The notes below the pieces were generated by a model. That model was given only the letters and a program-made list of their open reading frames with translations, ran no database searches and was not told the origin of the DNA. From NCBI GenBank assembly GCA_963713415.1, contig CAVQLV010000004.1, positions 945,517 through 1,009,516 on the forward strand: 64,000 nt of DNA, read 5' to 3'. Both the position numbers and the translations under genes were made by a program. The DNA is from Bryobacterales bacterium (lineage in GTDB: Bacteria > Acidobacteriota > Terriglobia > Bryobacterales > Bryobacteraceae). This document shows, piece after piece, positions 3,939 to 21,203 of the stretch; position 1 is the stretch's first letter; each line of letters opens with the position of its first letter.

Positions 3939-4052
3939 ACTAAGCCAAATAACCTAGGAACACAACTTTTCCCGTTGTTGAGCTCCTCTATAAACATAAT
4001 ACCAGTGCAATGTTCAATGGATTTGAATGCGAATGCATTGGCGTTGGCGCTC

Positions 4053-4841
4053 CTATCGGAGTAGGGCGTCCAAGGATAGCTCGTCCAACGATAGAAAATG
4101 GTATGCTCGCCGCTGCGCCGTAGACATCGTGGGATAGAGCGATGCCCGAAGTTTGTCGGCCCTCGCCGTGGTTTGGGTGACGATCGCGACTTGAAAATAG
4201 TCGATACCGAACTTCGCGACATGGCGCTGCTGTTGGTGATATGTGGCATAGGCGTTGATCTTCTGGGCGATGCGGGCGTGGGACATCGTGCCCACGTCCG
4301 CCTCTAGGAAGAAATGCAGTCTATTCTTCGCGGTTGGCGGGTTCGCGTACCGGAGAGTGAAATAGGCGTCCGGACGGATCGGGAGCTTTCCGTCCGTCGT
4401 CTCTACGCTGTCCCACAGTTTGGGCTGATCATGCTGCCAGGCTTCGAGCCGGATTTGGCCACTGCGAGGGAGAATCAGGAGTTTCGTATGGATGCTCGCG
4501 ACCAGAAGCGCGTGGGGGATCATGAGGTCCTTCCATTCCGTCTCCCGGCGTCGCCGATCGGTAAGCTCTTGGGGCGCATATCCGCCGTTTATGAGTACGG
4601 GGAAACCCTCGGAGCCAATCACGTACAGTCCCTTATGTGGCCTAGGCTTCAGGCGCGTGAGATACCGCTCCTCCCGGAGCTTCGGCAGGCGACGCTCCAG
4701 TGCTTTCTGCGAACGATTGGTGAGCACAGCCAGGTGGTCGATGGTCGCCACGCGAAGCTGGTAGACGTAATGCACGATCTCCGCGTCCCGCTCATTAAAT
4801 TGGAAACCGGTGCTGCTCATTGGTGGGGGGGATATGCCCAA
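4053..4841 (-). CDS. Replication-relaxation (Replic_Relax-like) family protein
   Basis: N-terminal wHTH-like FNERDAEIVHYVYQLRVATIDHLAVL...RRLPKLREERYLTRL and central LHFFLEADVGTMS match my recollection of PF13814 proteins from plasmids and ICEs. Needs an HMM check. The true start may be the Met at 4820. Confidence 0.6.
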   Translation of the reverse strand: MGISPPPMSSTGFQFNERDAEIVHYVYQLRVATIDHLAVLTNRSQKALERRLPKLREERYLTRLKPRPHKGLYVIGSEGFPVLINGGYAPQELTDRRRRETEWKDLMIPHALLVASIHTKLLILPRSGQIRLEAWQHDQPKLWDSVETTDGKLPIRPDAYFTLRYANPPTAKNRLHFFLEADVGTMSHARIAQKINAYATYHQQQRHVAKFGIDYFQVAIVTQTTARADKLRASLYPTMSTAQRRAYHFLSLDELSLDALLR

Positions 4842-5133
4842 CGGGTTGGTCTCGAAATTCTACCATCCATCGCGAAGTTTGATAATCGACGCCAACTTGA
4901 CCCATGTCCCAATCCGGTGTTCAATACGCGAGCTGCCTGCTCCTCTCTGCCTCCGGACGCGTCGAGTGTCCGCGCAATCGTGCAAGCGCCTTTCGCCAGC
5001 GACGAAATCGCACAACACCCGTTGCTGTAGAGGGCGCTTGCGCCCGCACGACGGCAGAGACAATCGGAACCGCTCTCAACGGCGGTTGGAGCAGACGCTT
5101 GCGTCATTGAGAGATGCTTCGCCTGCTTGGAGC

Positions 5134-5475
5134 GGGCAGCCCCCGTTGGGGGCTGCCCTCCCGTTCATTATTTTGAAAATCGTCGGAATCGGTTTGCCGG
5201 ATCTTTCCGGCAATCTTTTGAATTTTTTCCGGCTCGGCGTTGCCGAGCCGTGCACAACACCATTTGGAGAAGCGGCAATTGCCGCTTTCTCGGCTCACCA
5301 AGTAATTAGTTGTCGCCCACCAGGAGCCCGGAGCGGTTAGCGGAGGCCGCAGCCAGGCGGTTACGCCATGGCAAGGCGGCGATAGCGCCGGCTGATGCCG
5401 ATTTGGTCGATTCCCCACCTATTAGGTGGGCGACCCGAACGAAGTGAGCCGGTAGGAAAGCGGCATCAGCCGGCG
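5134..5475. repeat. Cluster of perfect hairpins and palindromes in a non-coding region
   Basis: GGGCAGCCCCC-GTT-GGGGGCTGCCC (5134-5158). GGCTCGGC-GTT-GCCGAGCC (5231-5249). GAAGCGGCAATTGCCGCTTC (5269-5288). CGCCGGCTGATGCCG (5386-5400) pairs with CGGCATCAGCCGGCG (5461-5475) and encloses CCCACCTA-T-TAGGTGGG (5414-5430). Confidence 0.8.
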
Positions 5476-5561
5476 GTTAAGCCGGCGACTGGTGGGCGTG
5501 CTAGTTACGCGATAGCACACGTTTTGCGGGCCTTTTGGCACGCGCGGTAGTTTACCAGGGT

Positions 5562-5602
5562 GTAGGAATGATTCCTACAGGCATTCCTACATGGATTCCT
5601 AC
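5562..5602. repeat. Iteron-like array of ATTCCTAC boxes
   Basis: GTAGGAAT-G-ATTCCTAC palindrome (5562-5578), followed by ATTCCTAC at 5583-5590 and 5595-5602. The three direct copies are phased at exactly 12 bp. There is an extra GTAGGAA at 5452-5458. Confidence 0.8.
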
Positions 5603-5655
5603 GGCTCCAAACATAGGTTTCACATAAGGATGAATTCTCTCAAGCGTAAGAGCGC

Positions 5656-7059
5656 TTACTTAATTTTCTTTACCAGCTCGACCAAAAGTTCGAGAAGCTG
5701 CTTGCCTTCTTTGCTGTTGGCTAGGGCAAAGAGCGTGGCGGGACTCTTCTCGCCTGCGGCCGCGATAATCTCCTCCTGGCCGAATGACTTCTCGCCTATC
5801 TGGACGCGGAATTTGTTCTGTTCGTCCGTAGGAAGAGGAGCAAGGTACGGGCCGATTGCTTCAAGCTCCAAGGCAAGCCTGCGGTTACGCCTTTCCGAGT
5901 TGAATAACTTGTCTGCCTGGGTTCCCGCATAGGCGGCGATGACCCCGAGCGATGCGAGAAAGACGACTCTTCCGGCAAATCCACCCCAGTTGAAGGCCCC
6001 CTTATCGTCCGAGAGAAGATAGAGCGTTTTGTACGCCATGAAGCTTAAGGAAATCATCGCGGCAACGGTGATGCTCTGCCACATCCACATCGTGCGTCGC
6101 GCATGATTGGCGGCGCGAAGATACCCCGAAGTAACGCCAAGGTTGCCGATAACGCCGACCAGCTTTTCGACGCGGAGTTTGTCGGATTCGATTTCCGAGA
6201 GGAGTTTCTGTGACTTGGCCGCATACTCCTGGTGAAGATCTTCCGTCTTCTGTGCGGAAGCTGAACGCAGTTCCGCTTCATCCTTAGCGAAAACGGCGTC
6301 ACGGTCCGATAGCGTTGAGCGAAAGGTCTCCAGCATCTCCTTGAACGAGTTCTCCTGCTGGCTCGAAACAGCGACGAACTGAGTGCTTCGTTGGTCCTGC
6401 CCTGCCGAAAACTGGGCCTGATGCTCCGATGTCAAACGAGTAAGCTCTTGCTGAGAGCTGGCTAGTGTTGTGGCGAATTCCTGATTTCTCTTCTCCTGTC
6501 CCTCGGAAAACTGACGCTGATGGTCGCTTACTACTTGGGTGAGCTGCTCGCGTTCTCTTTGAAAAGCATTCGACAATTCGCCGAAACTCTCCTTCAATCG
6601 GTTGGCCTCGATTGTGCTTTGCTGGCGGAATTCCTGTGCTTCCTTGAGTTGGCGCTCGAAGTCAGCCCTAGACGCGATCGCGGATCTGGCAAGTGCGCCG
6701 AGCTCCTCAGGTGTTTCAAGGGTCGGAACCTTCATGACTTCGCCGAGCGCCGAGTCTACCGCTGTATTGGCGTTGGCGACTCCGGAAGCATCCCTGCCCC
6801 CGGTGAATGCCTGAATTGCTTCCCGCGCCTGACTAAGTAGCGATGCAATGGCGTCAAAGGGCGCCGGGAACGCAATCAGTGGGTCGGTAGCCGCGAGCCT
6901 CTTACCGATGAAAGCCAAGGCTGCGCGCACACGTTCGAGTCCTGCCAAGCCAACGGCGTCAAGCTGGGAGAGGGGGATAGCTTGGTCAATGGCCGGTCCC
7001 AGCAAACCCATCTGCTGCCAGACGGCATGGTCCCGTATGCGTTCATCCCATTGACTCAT
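5656..7059 (-). CDS. Coiled-coil protein with a C-terminal two-TM hairpin, function unknown
   Basis: 467 aa. Long Q/E/R-rich heptad-like region (EFRQQSTIEANRLKESFGELSNAFQREREQL...). Two hydrophobic helices: TMWMWQSITVAAMISLSFMAY and WGGFAGRVVFLASLGVIAAYAG. Divergent from 7403..11231. Confidence 0.7.
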   Translation of the reverse strand: MSQWDERIRDHAVWQQMGLLGPAIDQAIPLSQLDAVGLAGLERVRAALAFIGKRLAATDPLIAFPAPFDAIASLLSQAREAIQAFTGGRDASGVANANTAVDSALGEVMKVPTLETPEELGALARSAIASRADFERQLKEAQEFRQQSTIEANRLKESFGELSNAFQREREQLTQVVSDHQRQFSEGQEKRNQEFATTLASSQQELTRLTSEHQAQFSAGQDQRSTQFVAVSSQQENSFKEMLETFRSTLSDRDAVFAKDEAELRSASAQKTEDLHQEYAAKSQKLLSEIESDKLRVEKLVGVIGNLGVTSGYLRAANHARRTMWMWQSITVAAMISLSFMAYKTLYLLSDDKGAFNWGGFAGRVVFLASLGVIAAYAGTQADKLFNSERRNRRLALELEAIGPYLAPLPTDEQNKFRVQIGEKSFGQEEIIAAAGEKSPATLFALANSKEGKQLLELLVELVKKIK

Positions 7060-7402: not shown

Positions 7403-8101
7403 ATGGCCAAACAAGCGAACGTTATTTCCCATTGGGATCAGCTCATCGAGAATTTCCAAGCGTCATCGCTCGAATTCTACAACTCAGTCGAGAAGGCTCT
7501 TGAAGGACGGGCGGTGCCTGAGATCCACTGGTCGCGAGTTGAACACAAAGAGGGCGGCCTCGCGAGTGCCAAGCGGCAATACTTGCGCACGCACCGAGGC
7601 AAGTACGCATTCGATATCTGCGCCGCACCGTTTGGCACGGGATTCTTCGTTTCCTGGTGGTTTACGGAGCCGCCGCTCCCGTTTGCGTTCCTCTACACGC
7701 TCGCGTTTCTGTTTGCCGTCGTGATCGCGATGAATATTGCCTTCGGCGTTGGCATGGCGATCGGAGCTGCGATGAATGGCTATGCTCTCGGCCTCTTCCT
7801 TGGCGGATGCGTCGCCATCTTTGGTGTGCCGGCATTCTTGTGGCTCATCGGCAATGGTATCCGGCAAGGAACGATACCGGGGGAACGGACAGTGTTCGCG
7901 ATGCCGCTCGTTGGTTGGATCTATGAACGGATCTTTGCACGGTCGACCTTCTATGCCATGGACACGGCGCTCATGTTCCAGAAGGCGGTGCACCAGGCCG
8001 TCCAAGAGGTGATCGAGTGCATGACGGCGAATAAAGGCGTTCGGGCGCTCACCGAAGCCGAGCGCAAACCGATCATGAGGCAATTTGGGGCTTCCGCCTG
8101 A
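7403..8101 (+). CDS. Integral membrane protein, function unknown (first gene of a two-gene operon)
   Basis: 232 aa. Soluble N-terminal region of about 85 aa, a hydrophobic block FFVSWWFTEPPLPFAFLYTLAFLFAVVIAMNIAFGVGMAIGAAMNGYALGLFLGGCVAIFGVPAFLWLIG, and a soluble C-terminal tail. It ends 10 nt before the 8112 ATG. Confidence 0.7.
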   Translation: MAKQANVISHWDQLIENFQASSLEFYNSVEKALEGRAVPEIHWSRVEHKEGGLASAKRQYLRTHRGKYAFDICAAPFGTGFFVSWWFTEPPLPFAFLYTLAFLFAVVIAMNIAFGVGMAIGAAMNGYALGLFLGGCVAIFGVPAFLWLIGNGIRQGTIPGERTVFAMPLVGWIYERIFARSTFYAMDTALMFQKAVHQAVQEVIECMTANKGVRALTEAERKPIMRQFGASA

Positions 8102-8111
8102 GTTCTAGGTC

Positions 8112-11100
8112 ATGGCGTGCAACGGTCCTGCCTGGGAAGCGCTCACGCGCCAATTCTATGACTGGGAAACGCGAGGGAGAGGATGGCAGGTCTTTGACGC
8201 CCCCGTGGCGCTGGAACCGCCATTCCGGCAGTTCTTCGGTCACTTCGTATCGGCTCCGCCGGGAACTCCAGTAGATGATGGCCGCCGACCGACCTTCCTA
8301 AGCTCCGTTATCGACGGCATCTTCAAGCCGCCTGGGCGTCCGGAGATTGCCCCGCACGAGGAGACGGAACAGGAGCCGGTTTACGTAGCGAGCGATACTC
8401 GCCTCATTGAAGTACGCGCCGTCTTGCCACCTGAAACGAAGATCACGAAAGATGCCGCCACTCAATTCCTTATGAGCCTTGGCCATGGGTCTCGGCCGGC
8501 AAGCTTTGAGATTGTGGGAACCGATGAAGCAGTCATCGTGCAACTTGCCGCGGCCGAAAGCGACCGCAGGCAGGTGCGCGAACAGCTCCGAGCATACTTC
8601 CCGGAGGCATTACTCTCGGAATCGCGCGGCTACCTGGAAGCCCTCTGGGACACGACGGGCGCGAAAGCGACAGCGGTCGTCGACTTTGGCCTTTCGAAGG
8701 AATTCATGCGGCCGCTGCGCTCGTTCGAGCGTTTTGATCCCGATCCCTTGGCGGGACTCATTGGTGCCATGTCGGAGCTTGGTGCCGGTGAAGTTGCACT
8801 ATTCCAAGTGCTCTTTGTCCCCGTGCGCCATCCGTGGCCGGAGAGCATCATGCGCGCTGTGACCGACGGTGCGGGGGATTCGTTCTTCGTTGACGATCCC
8901 GTGATCGTGAAACTCGCGGAAGAGAAGATATCCTCGCCGCTCTTTGCGGCGATAATCCGCGTGGCTGCCCAGAGTCCGAAGAGCAAACAGGCTTGGCGGA
9001 TTGCTCAAGCTATAGGAAAATCGCTGCGGCAGTTCACGGAAGCCGGGAGCAACGAACTGATCCCGCTCGCAAATGATGGTTATGACGACGCGCAACATTC
9101 AGATAATGTGATCGCGCGGCGGAGCTGTCGCGCCGGGCTCATTGTGAACCGCGATGAATTGGTGTCGCTCGTTCATCTGCCCTCTGCCTCCGCGCGGTCG
9201 GCGAAGCTGAAGCGCGAAGAGCGCAAGACCAAAGGTGCGCCCTCGCTCGCGTTTGGCCATGCACTGATCCTTGGTGAAAACCATAACGTGGGCAAAACGG
9301 TGCGCGTTTCGATGAGCACCGAACAGCGTGTCCGGCATATGCACCTCATCGGTGCTTCGGGCAGTGGTAAATCCACCTTGCTCTTGAACCTCATCGTTCA
9401 AGACATCGAACAGGGGAGCGGGCTCGCCGTTCTCGATCCGCACGGCGATCTTATCGACCAAGTGATCACCCGTATTCCCGAGGAGCGAATCAAGGATGTG
9501 GTGCTTCTCGATCCGTCTGACGAAGCGTATCCCGTCGGCTTCAACATACTTTCGGCGCATTCCGATCTTGAGCGCAACCTTCTGGCTTCGGATTTAGTTT
9601 CAGTTTTCAAGCGGCTCTCGACGAGTTTCGGCGATCAGATGACGACGGTCCTGGGGAACGCGATTCTCGCGTTTCTTGAGAGCACGGAGGGAGGGACGCT
9701 GTCGGACTTGCGACGATTCTTAGTTGAGCCAGGCTTCCGGCGAGCGGTTTCTTCAACCGTCCAGGATTCCGAAATCGTCTATTACTGGCAGAAGGAATTC
9801 TCGCTCCTTACCGGCAAACCGCAAGGGCCGATCCTCACGCGGCTCGATACCTTCCTTCGGCCGAAGGTGATCCGGTATATGGTTTCGCAAAAAGAGAACC
9901 GGCTGGATTTTGCGGAGATCATGAACGGCCGGAAGATCCTGCTCGCAAAGCTCTCGCAAGGCCTGATCGGAGAGGAGAACTCCTATCTCTTGGGCACGCT
10001 CATCGTATCGAAGCTGAACCAAATCGCGACGAGTCGGCAGAACATGGCGGCGTCACTCCGCCAGCCGTTCTATCTCTACATCGATGAGTTCCATAACTTC
10101 ATGACGCCTTCGCTTGCGGCGATCCTGTCCGGCGCCCGGAAATACAATTTGGGGTTGGTGCTCGCGCATCAAGAATTGCATCAGCTCTCGAACCGCGACG
10201 GAGACATCGCTTCGGCCGTCATTTCAAATCCGTACACCCGCGTTTGCTTTCGCCTCGGGGACTTCGATGCGAAGAAACTCGAAGACGGATTCTCGTTCTT
10301 CAAAGCGAAGGATCTCCAAAACCTGAGTGTGGGCGAAGCGATCGTTCGTATGGAGCGGGCGGAATATGATTTCAATTTGAAAACCGTTCCGATGTCTTTG
10401 GTTGAGCCATCGCTTGCGGCAAGCCGCCGCGAAAGGATCGTTGCCTCTTCACGGGAACGATATGCGAGAAGCCGAGAAGAGGTGGAGACGGTTATCCGGG
10501 CTGGTCGCGAAGCGGCGGAGTCGGAGGTGGTTTCTCATGGGAAGCGGGCCAGATTGCGCGTGGAGATCCCGCTTCCTTCCACAAAGGGAGCGCGGGCGTC
10601 GGAAGCTCCGAACCAAACCGCAGAGCCACAAGCTCCCGGACGGGGAGGGGAACATCATAAGTATCTACAGCAGCTCATCAAACGTTGGGCGGAAGGCAGA
10701 GGATACCAGGTGACGCTCGAAAAGCCGGTACTCGACGGCATGGGTATCATCGATGTCGTTTTGGAGAAGGGCGGGCTCGCTCCCATTGCGTGCGAAATTT
10801 CCATCACAACACCGGTTGAACATGAACTGAAGAATGCAGAGAAGTGCCTGGTTGCCGGATACGAGCATGTCTTTCTCGTTGCCCCGGATAGGGATACACT
10901 CGCCCGCGTGAGGGCTCGCGCTACTTCGGTGTTGACTCCAGCCCAACTGAAGAAAGTTCGGTTCGTGCTACCCGAGGAAGTGTTTGCTTCAGTTTCAGTG
11001 CTCGATGCCGGGGCCACGTCGCGGGAAGGGGACGGGGCGAAGCAAGACTCAAAGGAACTGCTCACCGCCAAAGAGGTAGAAGAGCTCGTCCGGATCGATG

Positions 11101-11231
11101 TGAAGACAATCTATGGCTATGTGCAAAAGGGACTGATACCCTATGTTCGGATTCAGTCGAACCTGCGGTTTTTGAAGTCAGAAGTGCTCGCGTGGGTGGC
11201 GGACCACAGTTCGAAAAGGCGGAGAAGGTGA
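8112..11231 (+). CDS. Multidomain protein: unknown N-domain + TraD/VirD4-like ATPase + restriction-endonuclease-like module + excisionase/MerR-type HTH
   Basis: 1039 aa. Walker A GASGSGKST (aa 414-422). Walker B FYLYIDEFHNF (aa 653-663). LVLAHQELHQL. aa 845-927, HHKYLQQLIKRW...GIIDVVLEKGG...IACEISITT...EKCLVAGYEHVFLV, resembles a PD-(D/E)xK-type fold. aa 982-1030, LLTAKEVEELVRIDVKTIYGYVQKGLIPYVRIQSNLRFLKSEVLAWV, resembles an excisionase-family HTH. Confidence 0.75.
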   Translation: MACNGPAWEALTRQFYDWETRGRGWQVFDAPVALEPPFRQFFGHFVSAPPGTPVDDGRRPTFLSSVIDGIFKPPGRPEIAPHEETEQEPVYVASDTRLIEVRAVLPPETKITKDAATQFLMSLGHGSRPASFEIVGTDEAVIVQLAAAESDRRQVREQLRAYFPEALLSESRGYLEALWDTTGAKATAVVDFGLSKEFMRPLRSFERFDPDPLAGLIGAMSELGAGEVALFQVLFVPVRHPWPESIMRAVTDGAGDSFFVDDPVIVKLAEEKISSPLFAAIIRVAAQSPKSKQAWRIAQAIGKSLRQFTEAGSNELIPLANDGYDDAQHSDNVIARRSCRAGLIVNRDELVSLVHLPSASARSAKLKREERKTKGAPSLAFGHALILGENHNVGKTVRVSMSTEQRVRHMHLIGASGSGKSTLLLNLIVQDIEQGSGLAVLDPHGDLIDQVITRIPEERIKDVVLLDPSDEAYPVGFNILSAHSDLERNLLASDLVSVFKRLSTSFGDQMTTVLGNAILAFLESTEGGTLSDLRRFLVEPGFRRAVSSTVQDSEIVYYWQKEFSLLTGKPQGPILTRLDTFLRPKVIRYMVSQKENRLDFAEIMNGRKILLAKLSQGLIGEENSYLLGTLIVSKLNQIATSRQNMAASLRQPFYLYIDEFHNFMTPSLAAILSGARKYNLGLVLAHQELHQLSNRDGDIASAVISNPYTRVCFRLGDFDAKKLEDGFSFFKAKDLQNLSVGEAIVRMERAEYDFNLKTVPMSLVEPSLAASRRERIVASSRERYARSREEVETVIRAGREAAESEVVSHGKRARLRVEIPLPSTKGARASEAPNQTAEPQAPGRGGEHHKYLQQLIKRWAEGRGYQVTLEKPVLDGMGIIDVVLEKGGLAPIACEISITTPVEHELKNAEKCLVAGYEHVFLVAPDRDTLARVRARATSVLTPAQLKKVRFVLPEEVFASVSVLDAGATSREGDGAKQDSKELLTAKEVEELVRIDVKTIYGYVQKGLIPYVRIQSNLRFLKSEVLAWVADHSSKRRRR

Positions 11232-21035: not shown

Positions 21036-21203
21036 CAGCCTCATGACTAGCGGCAGAGCCAGCGACGATGCCAACAGAATGTATCTAAAGATTTGGGTAA
21101 CGCTTTTGGCCCGAGGGGATGGTTGAGATGATGTAAAGAGTTTTCTCCATATCGATATAACCGAGAGCATGATCGGACGATGTAGATAAAATCCTTTCTC
21201 GCG

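Follow-up and report, generated by a model that had tools for sequence, protein, structure and literature searches.

Relaxases of the MOBC family are the least understood of the canonical relaxase families. They are restriction-enzyme-like, only those of pAD1 and CloDF13 have been studied, and their recruitment, the termination of transfer and the recircularisation of the transferred DNA are an open question (PMC12857230, PMC6736028). The Pfam family Replic_Relax (PF13814) corresponds to the MOBC relaxase superfamily and is found together with VirD4-type coupling proteins (PMC5357655). The relaxase of pAD1, TraX, is restriction-endonuclease-like, carries an N-terminal winged helix, and binds five direct repeats within the transfer origin (oriT) that are located 70-120 bp from the nick site (nic) (PMC12857230). 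The pAD1 oriT also contains inverted repeats (PMC5587640). No covalent intermediate has been detected for TraX/MOBC (PMC12857230, PMC6736028); for CloDF13 MobC, of the same superfamily, an atypical chemistry is described and no stable covalent 5' intermediate has been reported (PMC6736028). Here we describe a non-coding region next to a Replic_Relax gene in a Bryobacterales bacterium (Acidobacteriota; contig CAVQLV010000004.1 of the 8.7-Mb assembly GCA_963713415.1). All coordinates are those of the window, i.e. the whole stretch of 64,000 nucleotides that was analysed, within which 4700-5800 was read and a repeat finder was run on 4841-5656.

The original prediction for this locus, made from the letters of the sequence, was of a field of hairpins and palindromes with 12-bp-phased repeats forming an oriT or an origin beside the relaxase gene. 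We assign a probability of roughly 0.6 to the reading that 5180-5605 is the cis-acting oriT of a small integrated mobilizable element with a MOBC relaxase and coupling-protein-like ATPases, an oriT that would act at the DNA level, including a role as single-stranded DNA. The gap between 4841 and 5656 resolves into a separate unit termed module A, a multibranch fold of about 190 nt, and a small hairpin followed by the motif CGGTAGTT and a repeat array. From left to right, the block 5180-5605, termed module B, has two conserved hairpins, a palindrome with GCACAA(C/G)ACC copies on its flanks, the large fold, the (Y)AGTTAMGCG motif, a small hairpin that covaries, the GCGGTAGTTT motif, and the array. 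The relaxase gene and the elements of the gap are as follows.

4053-4841, minus strand: Replic_Relax (MOBC-type) gene (PF13814, E 4.2e-23), likely true start ATG at 4820.
5134-5158: hairpin with an 11-bp stem and a GTT loop.
5194-5213, unstranded: hairpin TTGCCGGA-N4-TCCGGCAA, 8-bp stem, conserved, with a variable loop; absent from the original prediction.
5230-5250, unstranded: hairpin CGGCTCGGC-GTT-GCCGAGCCG, 9-bp stem, with the motif GCACAA(C/G)ACC next to it at 5252-5262.
5270-5287, unstranded: perfect 18-bp palindrome that covaries among relatives, e.g. as GAGCGAGCGGTAGCCGCTCGCT.
5312-5500, plus strand: multibranch fold with a closing helix, two small hairpins, and a long irregular arm that includes a 15-bp inverted repeat.
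5386-5400 with 5461-5475: perfect 15-bp inverted repeat inside the long arm of the large fold.
5414-5430: palindrome (8+1+8), the tip hairpin of the same arm.
5502-5511, plus strand: (Y)AGTTAMGCG motif directly 3' of the closing helix, kept even in the most distant copies.
5526-5543, unstranded: small hairpin GCGGGCC-TTTT-GGCACGC, which covaries among relatives.
5544-5553, plus strand: GCGGTAGTTT motif, invariant across repeat types I-IV.
5562-5602, unstranded: repeat (iteron) array, with inverted GTAGGAAT at 5562-5569 and direct ATTCCTAC at 5571, 5583 and 5595, in exact 12-bp phase.

The closest parallel is with oriT2 and TraX of pAD1 (Enterococcus faecalis). The two relaxases belong to the same Pfam and MOB family and share an N-terminal winged helix and, probably, a restriction-endonuclease-like core. 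In both systems direct repeats follow each other at about one helical turn, here as 8-mers at a 12-bp phase, and in both the relaxase and a coupling protein are encoded on the same element, the window having ATPases that resemble type IV coupling proteins (T4CP-like) at 1272-2966 and 8112-11231. The inverted repeat that holds nic on pAD1 can be compared with the large symmetric element at 5312-5500, which is 62 bp from the array. On pAD1, a large inverted repeat of about 140 bp reportedly lies beside short repeats of 11-bp periodicity, between the TraG-like and relaxase genes. There are also differences: the repeats here are 8 bp long, three direct and one inverted, at a 12-bp phase, whereas the 5 short repeats of pAD1 are spaced at about 11 bp; in place of a large inverted repeat there is a covarying, strand-biased multibranch fold of 190 nt; and the locus is a chromosome-integrated island of an acidobacterium rather than a Firmicute plasmid. 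At the level of sequence there is no detectable similarity to pAD1, given that neither a tblastn search of the relaxase against 72,556 plasmids nor a plasmid DNA search in distant mode gave a match. It is the shared logic of the two modules that leads us to read the module in the window as the oriT of an integrative mobilisable element of the MOBC type.

The abundance of perfect symmetry, which had been judged beyond chance, was borne out by dinucleotide-preserving shuffles. There are 7 perfect hairpins (stem of at least 8, loop of at most 12) in 5134-5602, compared with 0.11 +/- 0.33 expected; the shuffled sequences had a maximum of 3, and 0 of 1000 reached 7. The whole 64-kb window contains 23 such hairpins, the 7 included. 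All four hairpins or palindromes of the original prediction are present, with boundaries that differ by 1 nt at 5230-5250 (given as 5231-5249) and 5270-5287 (given as 5269-5288), and its inverted repeat at 5386-5400 and 5461-5475 is indeed perfect. The hairpins are thus real, but they are not a loose field, since 5386-5475 and 5414-5430 are parts of the one fold of about 190 nt and 5134-5158 belongs to module A. The gap had also been said to contain no credible open reading frame (ORF); mechanical ORFs exist, but when relatives are aligned there are indels whose lengths are not divisible by three, and it is on this ground that the gap is regarded as non-coding.

Left of the large fold, the 10-mer GCACAA(C/G)ACC has three copies in direct orientation, at 5010-5020, at 5252-5262, and at about 5291 in relatives. 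Two of the copies stand directly 3' of a hairpin, an arrangement that resembles the classical layout of an inverted repeat plus nic.

The large fold at 5312-5500 is closed by a helix of 10-15 bp (5314-5328 with 5484-5498), and its long arm ends in a three-way junction bearing the hairpin 5414-5430 and a C-GA(U)A-G mini-hairpin. The minimum free energy of 5300-5510 as RNA is -122.5 kcal/mol on the plus strand (z -9.1) and -104.2 on the minus strand (z -6.1); under DNA parameters it is -67.6 (z -8.1) and -60.0 (z -6.8), respectively. In an RNAalifold analysis of 20 homologues 55 pairs were predicted, with 96.6% of cells paired. Fifteen of these pairs are changed on both sides, as against 6.2 +/- 1.6 in shuffled alignments (0/500 reach 15) and 3-8 when the partners are slid. 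A covariance model, R1, was built from 16 copies of the fold (its E-values are rough), and matches the window at 5312-5500. When 33 copies were aligned to R1, a procedure that somewhat favours the structure because the alignment is fitted to the model, 95.3% of cells paired and compensatory changes were found in 36 of 54 pairs; shuffling gave 19.3 +/- 2.3 (0/500 reach 36) and sliding the partners gave 10-12.

The fold also has a strand. The plus-strand form is more stable in each of the 25 copies compared (20/20 close, 5/5 distant), and in the union of the pairs predicted separately for the two strands, G-U cells outnumber A-C cells by 72 to 15. This bias would mean that the fold acts as a single strand. 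The hairpins to its left (5194-5287) are without strand bias (GU 8, AC 18). The G+C content of the fold is 64-70%, that of the surrounding 1 kb 57%.

The non-coding block is well conserved among relatives of the element. In the assembly itself the 814-bp gap matches only itself by BLAST, and is single-copy by the covariance model too; thus, the region is not a dispersed repeat of the repetitive extragenic palindrome (REP) or miniature inverted-repeat transposable element (MITE) kind, an explanation against which the original prediction had asked to be checked. Three congeneric genomes have both the relaxase gene and the gap, at 70-79% identity, and a metagenome scan with the relaxase alignment recovered 39 loci, about 28 of which contain the block at 68-89% identity. 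At two of these loci, L043 and L044, the relaxase protein is only 53-54% identical while the DNA of 5193-5605 is 81% identical, which shows that the non-coding block evolves more slowly than the relaxase gene. Homology ends at 5590-5606, i.e. at the last repeat, in every relative, and the genes beyond are unrelated, making the array the right edge of the conserved block. An element boundary at the repeats was considered; it holds for genome G031 and fails for G026 and the window, between which synteny resumes at 7403.

R1 extended the family to diverged copies within the genus (in G461, G469, G003 and G035, and a second copy in G031) and to a distant clade (G271, from another family, and L052, L054 and L057). 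Since relatives were first gathered through the relaxase, counts of adjacency are biased, and the genus-wide search with R1 provides the unbiased sample. Among 54 genomes of the genus R1 was found in 9, PF13814 in 10, and both in 8; the genome with the fold only has it on a 5.7-kb contig, and two genomes have a relaxase gene and no detected fold. These genomes are kin and the two features share mobile elements, so that the co-occurrence represents linkage, not independent association. In the clade of the window and in the distant clade (relaxase 32-41% identical) the fold is directly upstream of the relaxase gene in divergent orientation, starting 25-30 nt from the relaxase start codon in the latter.

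Beyond the fold, the layout is equally regular. CGGTAGTT closes a stretch of 52-55 nt behind the fold in the five copies that were measured (window, G465, G461, G469 and G031b); after a further 6-9 nt come one inverted and three direct repeats at 12 bp. In the window the inverted and first direct repeats form GTAGGAAT-G-ATTCCTAC (5562-5578), and the copies at 5571, 5583 and 5595 are in exact 12-bp phase, as predicted. ATTCCTAC occurs 4 times in the 64-kb window, always within the array, where 0.99 occurrences would be expected. Searching the 8.7-Mb genome for further arrays, as the original prediction had proposed, revealed no second one; a repeat-like match with 2 mismatches at G000:C6:476234, 6 kb from a second Replic_Relax gene, lies in coding sequence and was dismissed as chance. 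Within the clade of the window (about 18 relatives) the 8-mers are nearly invariant and the 4-nt spacers variable, and about seven relatives have a decayed third direct copy. In diverged copies the array has the same geometry, whereas the repeat word, of 8-10 nt, differs by clade. That the repeats behave like protein-binding sites is supported by this combination of conserved 8-mers, free spacers, fixed phase and lineage-specific words; clade-specific words within a constant geometry are what would be expected of sites evolving jointly with their cognate DNA-binding protein.

Two observations concern the immediate surroundings of the array. Directly past it, many relatives (e.g. L037, L053, L065, L071, L074 and L075) have two copies of CCGATAGG, 14-25 bp apart, which may be a second class of binding site; in the window they are present only in degenerate form, as CATAGG and CATAAGG at 5604-5630. 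At L045 homology is lost just past the closing helix (about 2440-2510 in window orientation), and the small hairpin and repeats are replaced by insertion-like sequence with an inverted repeat, GTCCGAAAAGTG.../...TTGGACAGA.

A protein that might read the repeats is the relaxase itself. The neighbouring gene had been called Replic_Relax, upstream of whose start the gap lies, and this assignment holds: the PF13814 score is 82.8 bits compared with a cut-off of 25.3, covering profile positions 4-181 of 191, and the gene was found again in a whole-genome search for the family. In an AlphaFold2 model (predicted local distance difference test score, pLDDT, 85; predicted template modelling score, pTM, 0.84) the protein has an N-terminal winged helix-turn-helix (wHTH) at residues 17-75, made up of helices 17-29, 34-41 and 45-57 followed by the beta wing, residues 61-75. 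The core is probably PD-(D/E)XK-like. The best Foldseek matches are wHTH domains of MarR, ArsR and IclR, at a probability of about 1.0 but an E-value of only about 0.01, and Foldseek found no solved full-length relative or MOBC structure in the PDB. P157-D158 and E180-A-D182 are invariant in 19 homologues, and their acidic residues are candidates for metal-binding ones like those of the 'DEE' motif of TraX. When repeat words are set beside the relaxases of the same elements, the following types can be distinguished (identities are overall, to the relaxase of the window).

Type I, window (repeat word ATTCCTAC) and L043 (54% identity): helix 3 NRSxKxLERRxPKLR, wing LKPRPHKGLY.
Type II, e.g. G461 (46% identity): repeat word CCCTAKACCC, shared by G461, G469 and G031b; helix 3 GRSVRALWARLLKLK, wing VARFMQKHVY.
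Type III, G035: repeat word GCTAGACC; helix 3 and wing again distinct.
Type IV, G003: repeat word CATTTCC; helix 3 and wing again distinct.
Distant clade: repeat word GTAGCAA.

The repeat type thus varies together with helix 3 and the wing of the relaxase over four or five types, a correlation that is suggestive of recognition by this domain. The other candidate is the HTH_17 tail of the coupling-protein-like ATPase encoded at 8112-11231, of which 1272-2966 is a shorter paralogue. The element of G031 is without the long HTH_17-tailed protein and has kept type I repeats; consequently, the tail is not an obligatory binder of the repeats. A homologue of the short T4CP-like ATPase is common to all contexts examined, at 52-62% identity.

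Further relaxase genes were seen in this and other genomes. A second Replic_Relax gene of the same genome is located on another contig (G000:C6:482416-482874, minus strand), in an open frame of 316 aa and with no fold detectable by R1 nearby. Broken relaxase homologues occur at L050 (646-1407, 1 internal stop) and L057 (1841-2500, 5 stops), and at L086 (G003:C2:70569-71120) similarity to the relaxase is lost past about residue 150; at these three loci the folds and repeats are still intact. Genes at the usual position of the relaxase in G003 (259 and 281 aa) and a 297-aa gene of G031b were tried as diverged relaxases, and proved unrelated by hhalign, the real PF13814 genes being 8-21 kb off.

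Taken as an oriT, the module may function as follows. The relaxase would dock through its N-terminal winged helix on the 12-bp-phased repeats, along one face of the helix, after the manner of TraX of pAD1, and would cut the plus strand nearby. For the cut, the candidates are the invariant CGGTAGTT, just 3' of the small hairpin, or else the (Y)AGTT motifs on either side of the large fold; the GCGGTAGTTT motif at 5544-5553 would be the best candidate for nic or a recognition site. The plus strand would then leave 5' to 3' rightwards, and the relaxase gene and the fold would enter the recipient last. Last entry is usual for a relaxase gene, and on this ground the transferred strand is taken to be the plus strand, which would have the fold at its 3' end. 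Once single-stranded, this end could form the 190-nt plus-strand structure, either to be recognised during termination and rejoining, or to serve as a single-strand origin (sso) or single-strand initiation (ssi) site that primes the complementary strand. An elaborate DNA structure might be needed for termination because, as for CloDF13 MobC, no stable covalent 5' intermediate has been reported.

Precedents for the second role are known from rolling-circle plasmids, ICEBs1 and conjugative plasmids, where sso and ssi are orientation-specific, active only in single-stranded form, about 150-200 nt long, composed of several stem-loops, and dependent on structure over sequence. Such elements, sso1 of ICEBs1 among them, are found beside the nick site and the relaxase gene and prime the complementary strand after transfer (PMC4595007). 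The fold described here has the same specificity for one orientation (the plus strand in 25/25 copies; G-U over A-C, as above), and its position is comparable with that of sso upstream of the nick in rolling-circle plasmids. It differs in being far more conserved in sequence than the usual sso, and in its physical coupling to a repeat array. CloDF13 differs as a small enterobacterial plasmid on which the relaxase has a MobB partner. It is not known to have a comparable fold or 12-bp repeat array.

Several points weigh against an oriT that acts as DNA. Given its conserved unpaired nucleotides, its conserved G-U positions and its GNRA-like mini-hairpin, the 190-nt multibranch fold is closer in appearance to a functional RNA than to the simple inverted repeats of textbook oriTs, and in the clade of the window a well-conserved plus-strand promoter, P1, points into the region. 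Adjacency of fold and relaxase gene is not universal, the distance being 8-21 kb in types II-IV, which could be reconciled with integration at another point of a circular map. R1 did not detect the fold near more distant Replic_Relax genes: nothing was found in 8 genomes of the phylum, with genes 29-35% identical, or in G462 of the same genus, all of which carry Replic_Relax, and this may be a limit of the model. Finally, the site may be a relic in this genome even if the family is active. In favour of the oriT, the fold has no conserved promoter in front of it in L043/L044, in types II-IV, or in the distant clade, in which it borders on coding sequence.

The promoter P1 and the unit behind it bear on the leading alternative, and are listed here with the promoter of the relaxase gene.

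4857-4885, minus strand: relaxase promoter TTATCA-17-TAGAAT with an extended -10 TG, from a consensus scan.
4896-4928, plus strand: predicted divergent promoter P1, CTTGACC, 17-18 nt, (TG)TTCAATA, from our own reading of an alignment of 26 relatives; a simple scan did not call it.
4933-5175, plus strand: structured element of module A, a closed fold of about 210 nt followed by the hairpin 5134-5158 and a T-run.

The boxes of P1 are conserved, its spacer is constant in length and free in sequence, and it stands back to back with the relaxase promoter. Including P1, module A extends over about 4896-5175; RNAalifold gives -80.9 for the plus strand compared with -58.6 for the minus strand, and the plus strand is better in 19 of 24 sequences. 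With a promoter (CTTGACC-N17/18-TGTTCAATA), a closed fold, and a hairpin plus T-run that is terminator-like in the scan, module A looks like an independent small-RNA gene, though one without an Rfam match. It is missing from L043, L044 and L068, and hence is an accessory unit. Its 5' end (4933-4945) can also pair with 5128-5140 in competition with the terminator-like hairpin 5134-5158 and its T-run, from which a choice between terminator and antiterminator would be possible.

The large fold, on its own or as part of a P1 transcript that includes module A and measures up to about 650 nt, could be a previously undescribed structured non-coding RNA of these mobile elements, with a role as regulator, relaxosome cofactor or replication primer; the repeats would still be protein-binding sites in DNA. 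We regard this as unlikely overall, if far from negligible. Consistent with an RNA are the strong covariation, which includes positions that are G-U in the majority of copies (U:G in 15-17 of 20), the conserved single-stranded motifs GCGGUNAGCG, GAUAGCG and UUUGG, and a hairpin with a C-GAUA-G (GNRA-like) tetraloop whose closing pair changes from A:U to G:C in 10 of 20 copies. The bias of G-U over A-C fits RNA at least as well as single-stranded DNA, P1 is a conserved promoter with no protein-coding target, and module A itself resembles a small RNA. Conserved, covarying multibranch folds in non-coding DNA are likewise known from the RNAs of mobile elements, such as ROOL, GOLLD, HEARO/omega RNA, the IS110 bridge RNA and the retron msr-msd, and the outline of a closing helix, small hairpins and a long arm recalls retron and bridge RNAs.

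The fold differs from these RNAs, however, in having no Rfam match and no conserved promoter, and in its partners, a PD-(D/E)XK relaxase and a DNA repeat array. A cmscan of 4000-7000 on both strands against Rfam 15 yielded no match even at E <= 1. L043, L044 and L068 keep the fold without P1 and module A, no consistent sigma-70-like promoter is found upstream of it in types II-IV, and in the distant clade the fold is so close to the relaxase start codon (about 25-30 nt) that a promoter would be antisense inside coding sequence. Terminator-like hairpins lie between P1 and the fold, and there is no terminator past the fold. A candidate promoter immediately before the fold, P2 (TTGCCG at 5194, -10 near 5217), was not accepted, given a spacer of 16-20 nt and a -10 box that is poor in many copies; the hairpin at this site scanned as terminator-like in the window only. 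Two further readings of the fold were dropped: a tmRNA- or tRNA-like one, prompted by 'GGTCGATTCC...', for which ARAGORN found no tRNA or tmRNA and Rfam gave nothing, and that of a retron, bridge RNA or omega RNA, since the neighbouring ORFs that were scanned include no reverse transcriptase, IS110, IscB or TnpB gene.

The region could alternatively be one of transcriptional control only, with the repeats and palindromes as operators of the divergent relaxase and P1 promoters and no role in DNA processing, a reading we hold to be very improbable. The promoters are indeed back to back (4857-4928), the palindromes at 5194-5287 are strand-symmetric, and the -10 box of the relaxase gene, GATTCTACC, is similar to the repeat GATTCCTAC. 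The surrounding -10 region, GGGATTCTACCAT (4857-4867, minus strand), is nearly invariant among relatives and one base off GATTCCTAC, and thus the repeat-binding protein may autoregulate the relaxase gene. In the window, however, the repeats are about 700 bp from the promoters; a strand-specific covarying fold is not explained as an operator; and the module persists where the relaxase gene is 8-21 kb away.

The least probable explanation is a vegetative origin (oriV) of the iteron type that maintains the excised element, its repeats binding an initiator and its fold serving for priming, as an ssi site. Iteron origins typically have phased repeats whose sequence is specific to a lineage, a primase-like gene with a CHC2 zinc finger lies about 2.5 kb from the fold in some related elements (it was seen in three contexts), and the name of the Pfam family joins replication and relaxation. 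However, a scan of 10 ORFs of the island revealed no Rep-type Pfam domain, the repeats number only 4 and measure only 8 bp each, there is no AT-rich unwinding region, as the G+C values given above show (DnaA boxes were not searched for), the island of the window is without the primase-like gene, and the conserved partner is a relaxase. Of the original prediction, then, a functional cis-acting module tied to the relaxase is supported by the conservation, the single copy and the pAD1-like anatomy, and a vegetative origin is poorly supported, for want of a Rep gene and an AT-rich region.

Two relatives illustrate the genomic setting of such modules. L012 (G031:C11) contains two copies of the fold 8 kb apart (2169-2361 and 10124-10313), with the repeat words CCCTAKACCC and ATTCCTAC, which points to a tandem insertion of two related elements at a single site. 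About 250 bp past the array, at 10650-10680, is a fragment resembling the 3' end of a tRNA, GTTCGAATCCCACCCTCACCGCCA, such that the module is at the edge of the element there; the 90 bp that follow the fragment match 21073-21162 of the window, outside its island. In L010 (G001:C138) a second relaxase paralogue and a second T4CP-like ATPase are located 2.3-4.8 kb right of the fold; about 6 kb past the repeats there is a complete tRNA-Ser(GGA).

To return to the oriT, the family now comprises about 30 matched sets of relaxase, array and fold. The repeats show five or more specificities, and the secondary structure of the fold is strongly supported. The locus would provide the first candidate oriT described for mobile elements of the Acidobacteriota, a phylum that is abundant in soil and genetically intractable, and could seed mobilisable vectors. 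More tentatively, the fold might be an undescribed structured nucleic acid that is the working partner of PD-(D/E)XK (MOBC) relaxases, either as an RNA cofactor or guide of the relaxosome, or as a single-stranded DNA structure that replaces the missing covalent link in termination and priming. If the fold is an RNA, it would represent a new structured RNA class linked to conjugation. In either capacity, if true, such a partner would account for the completion of transfer by relaxases that lack a stable 5' adduct.

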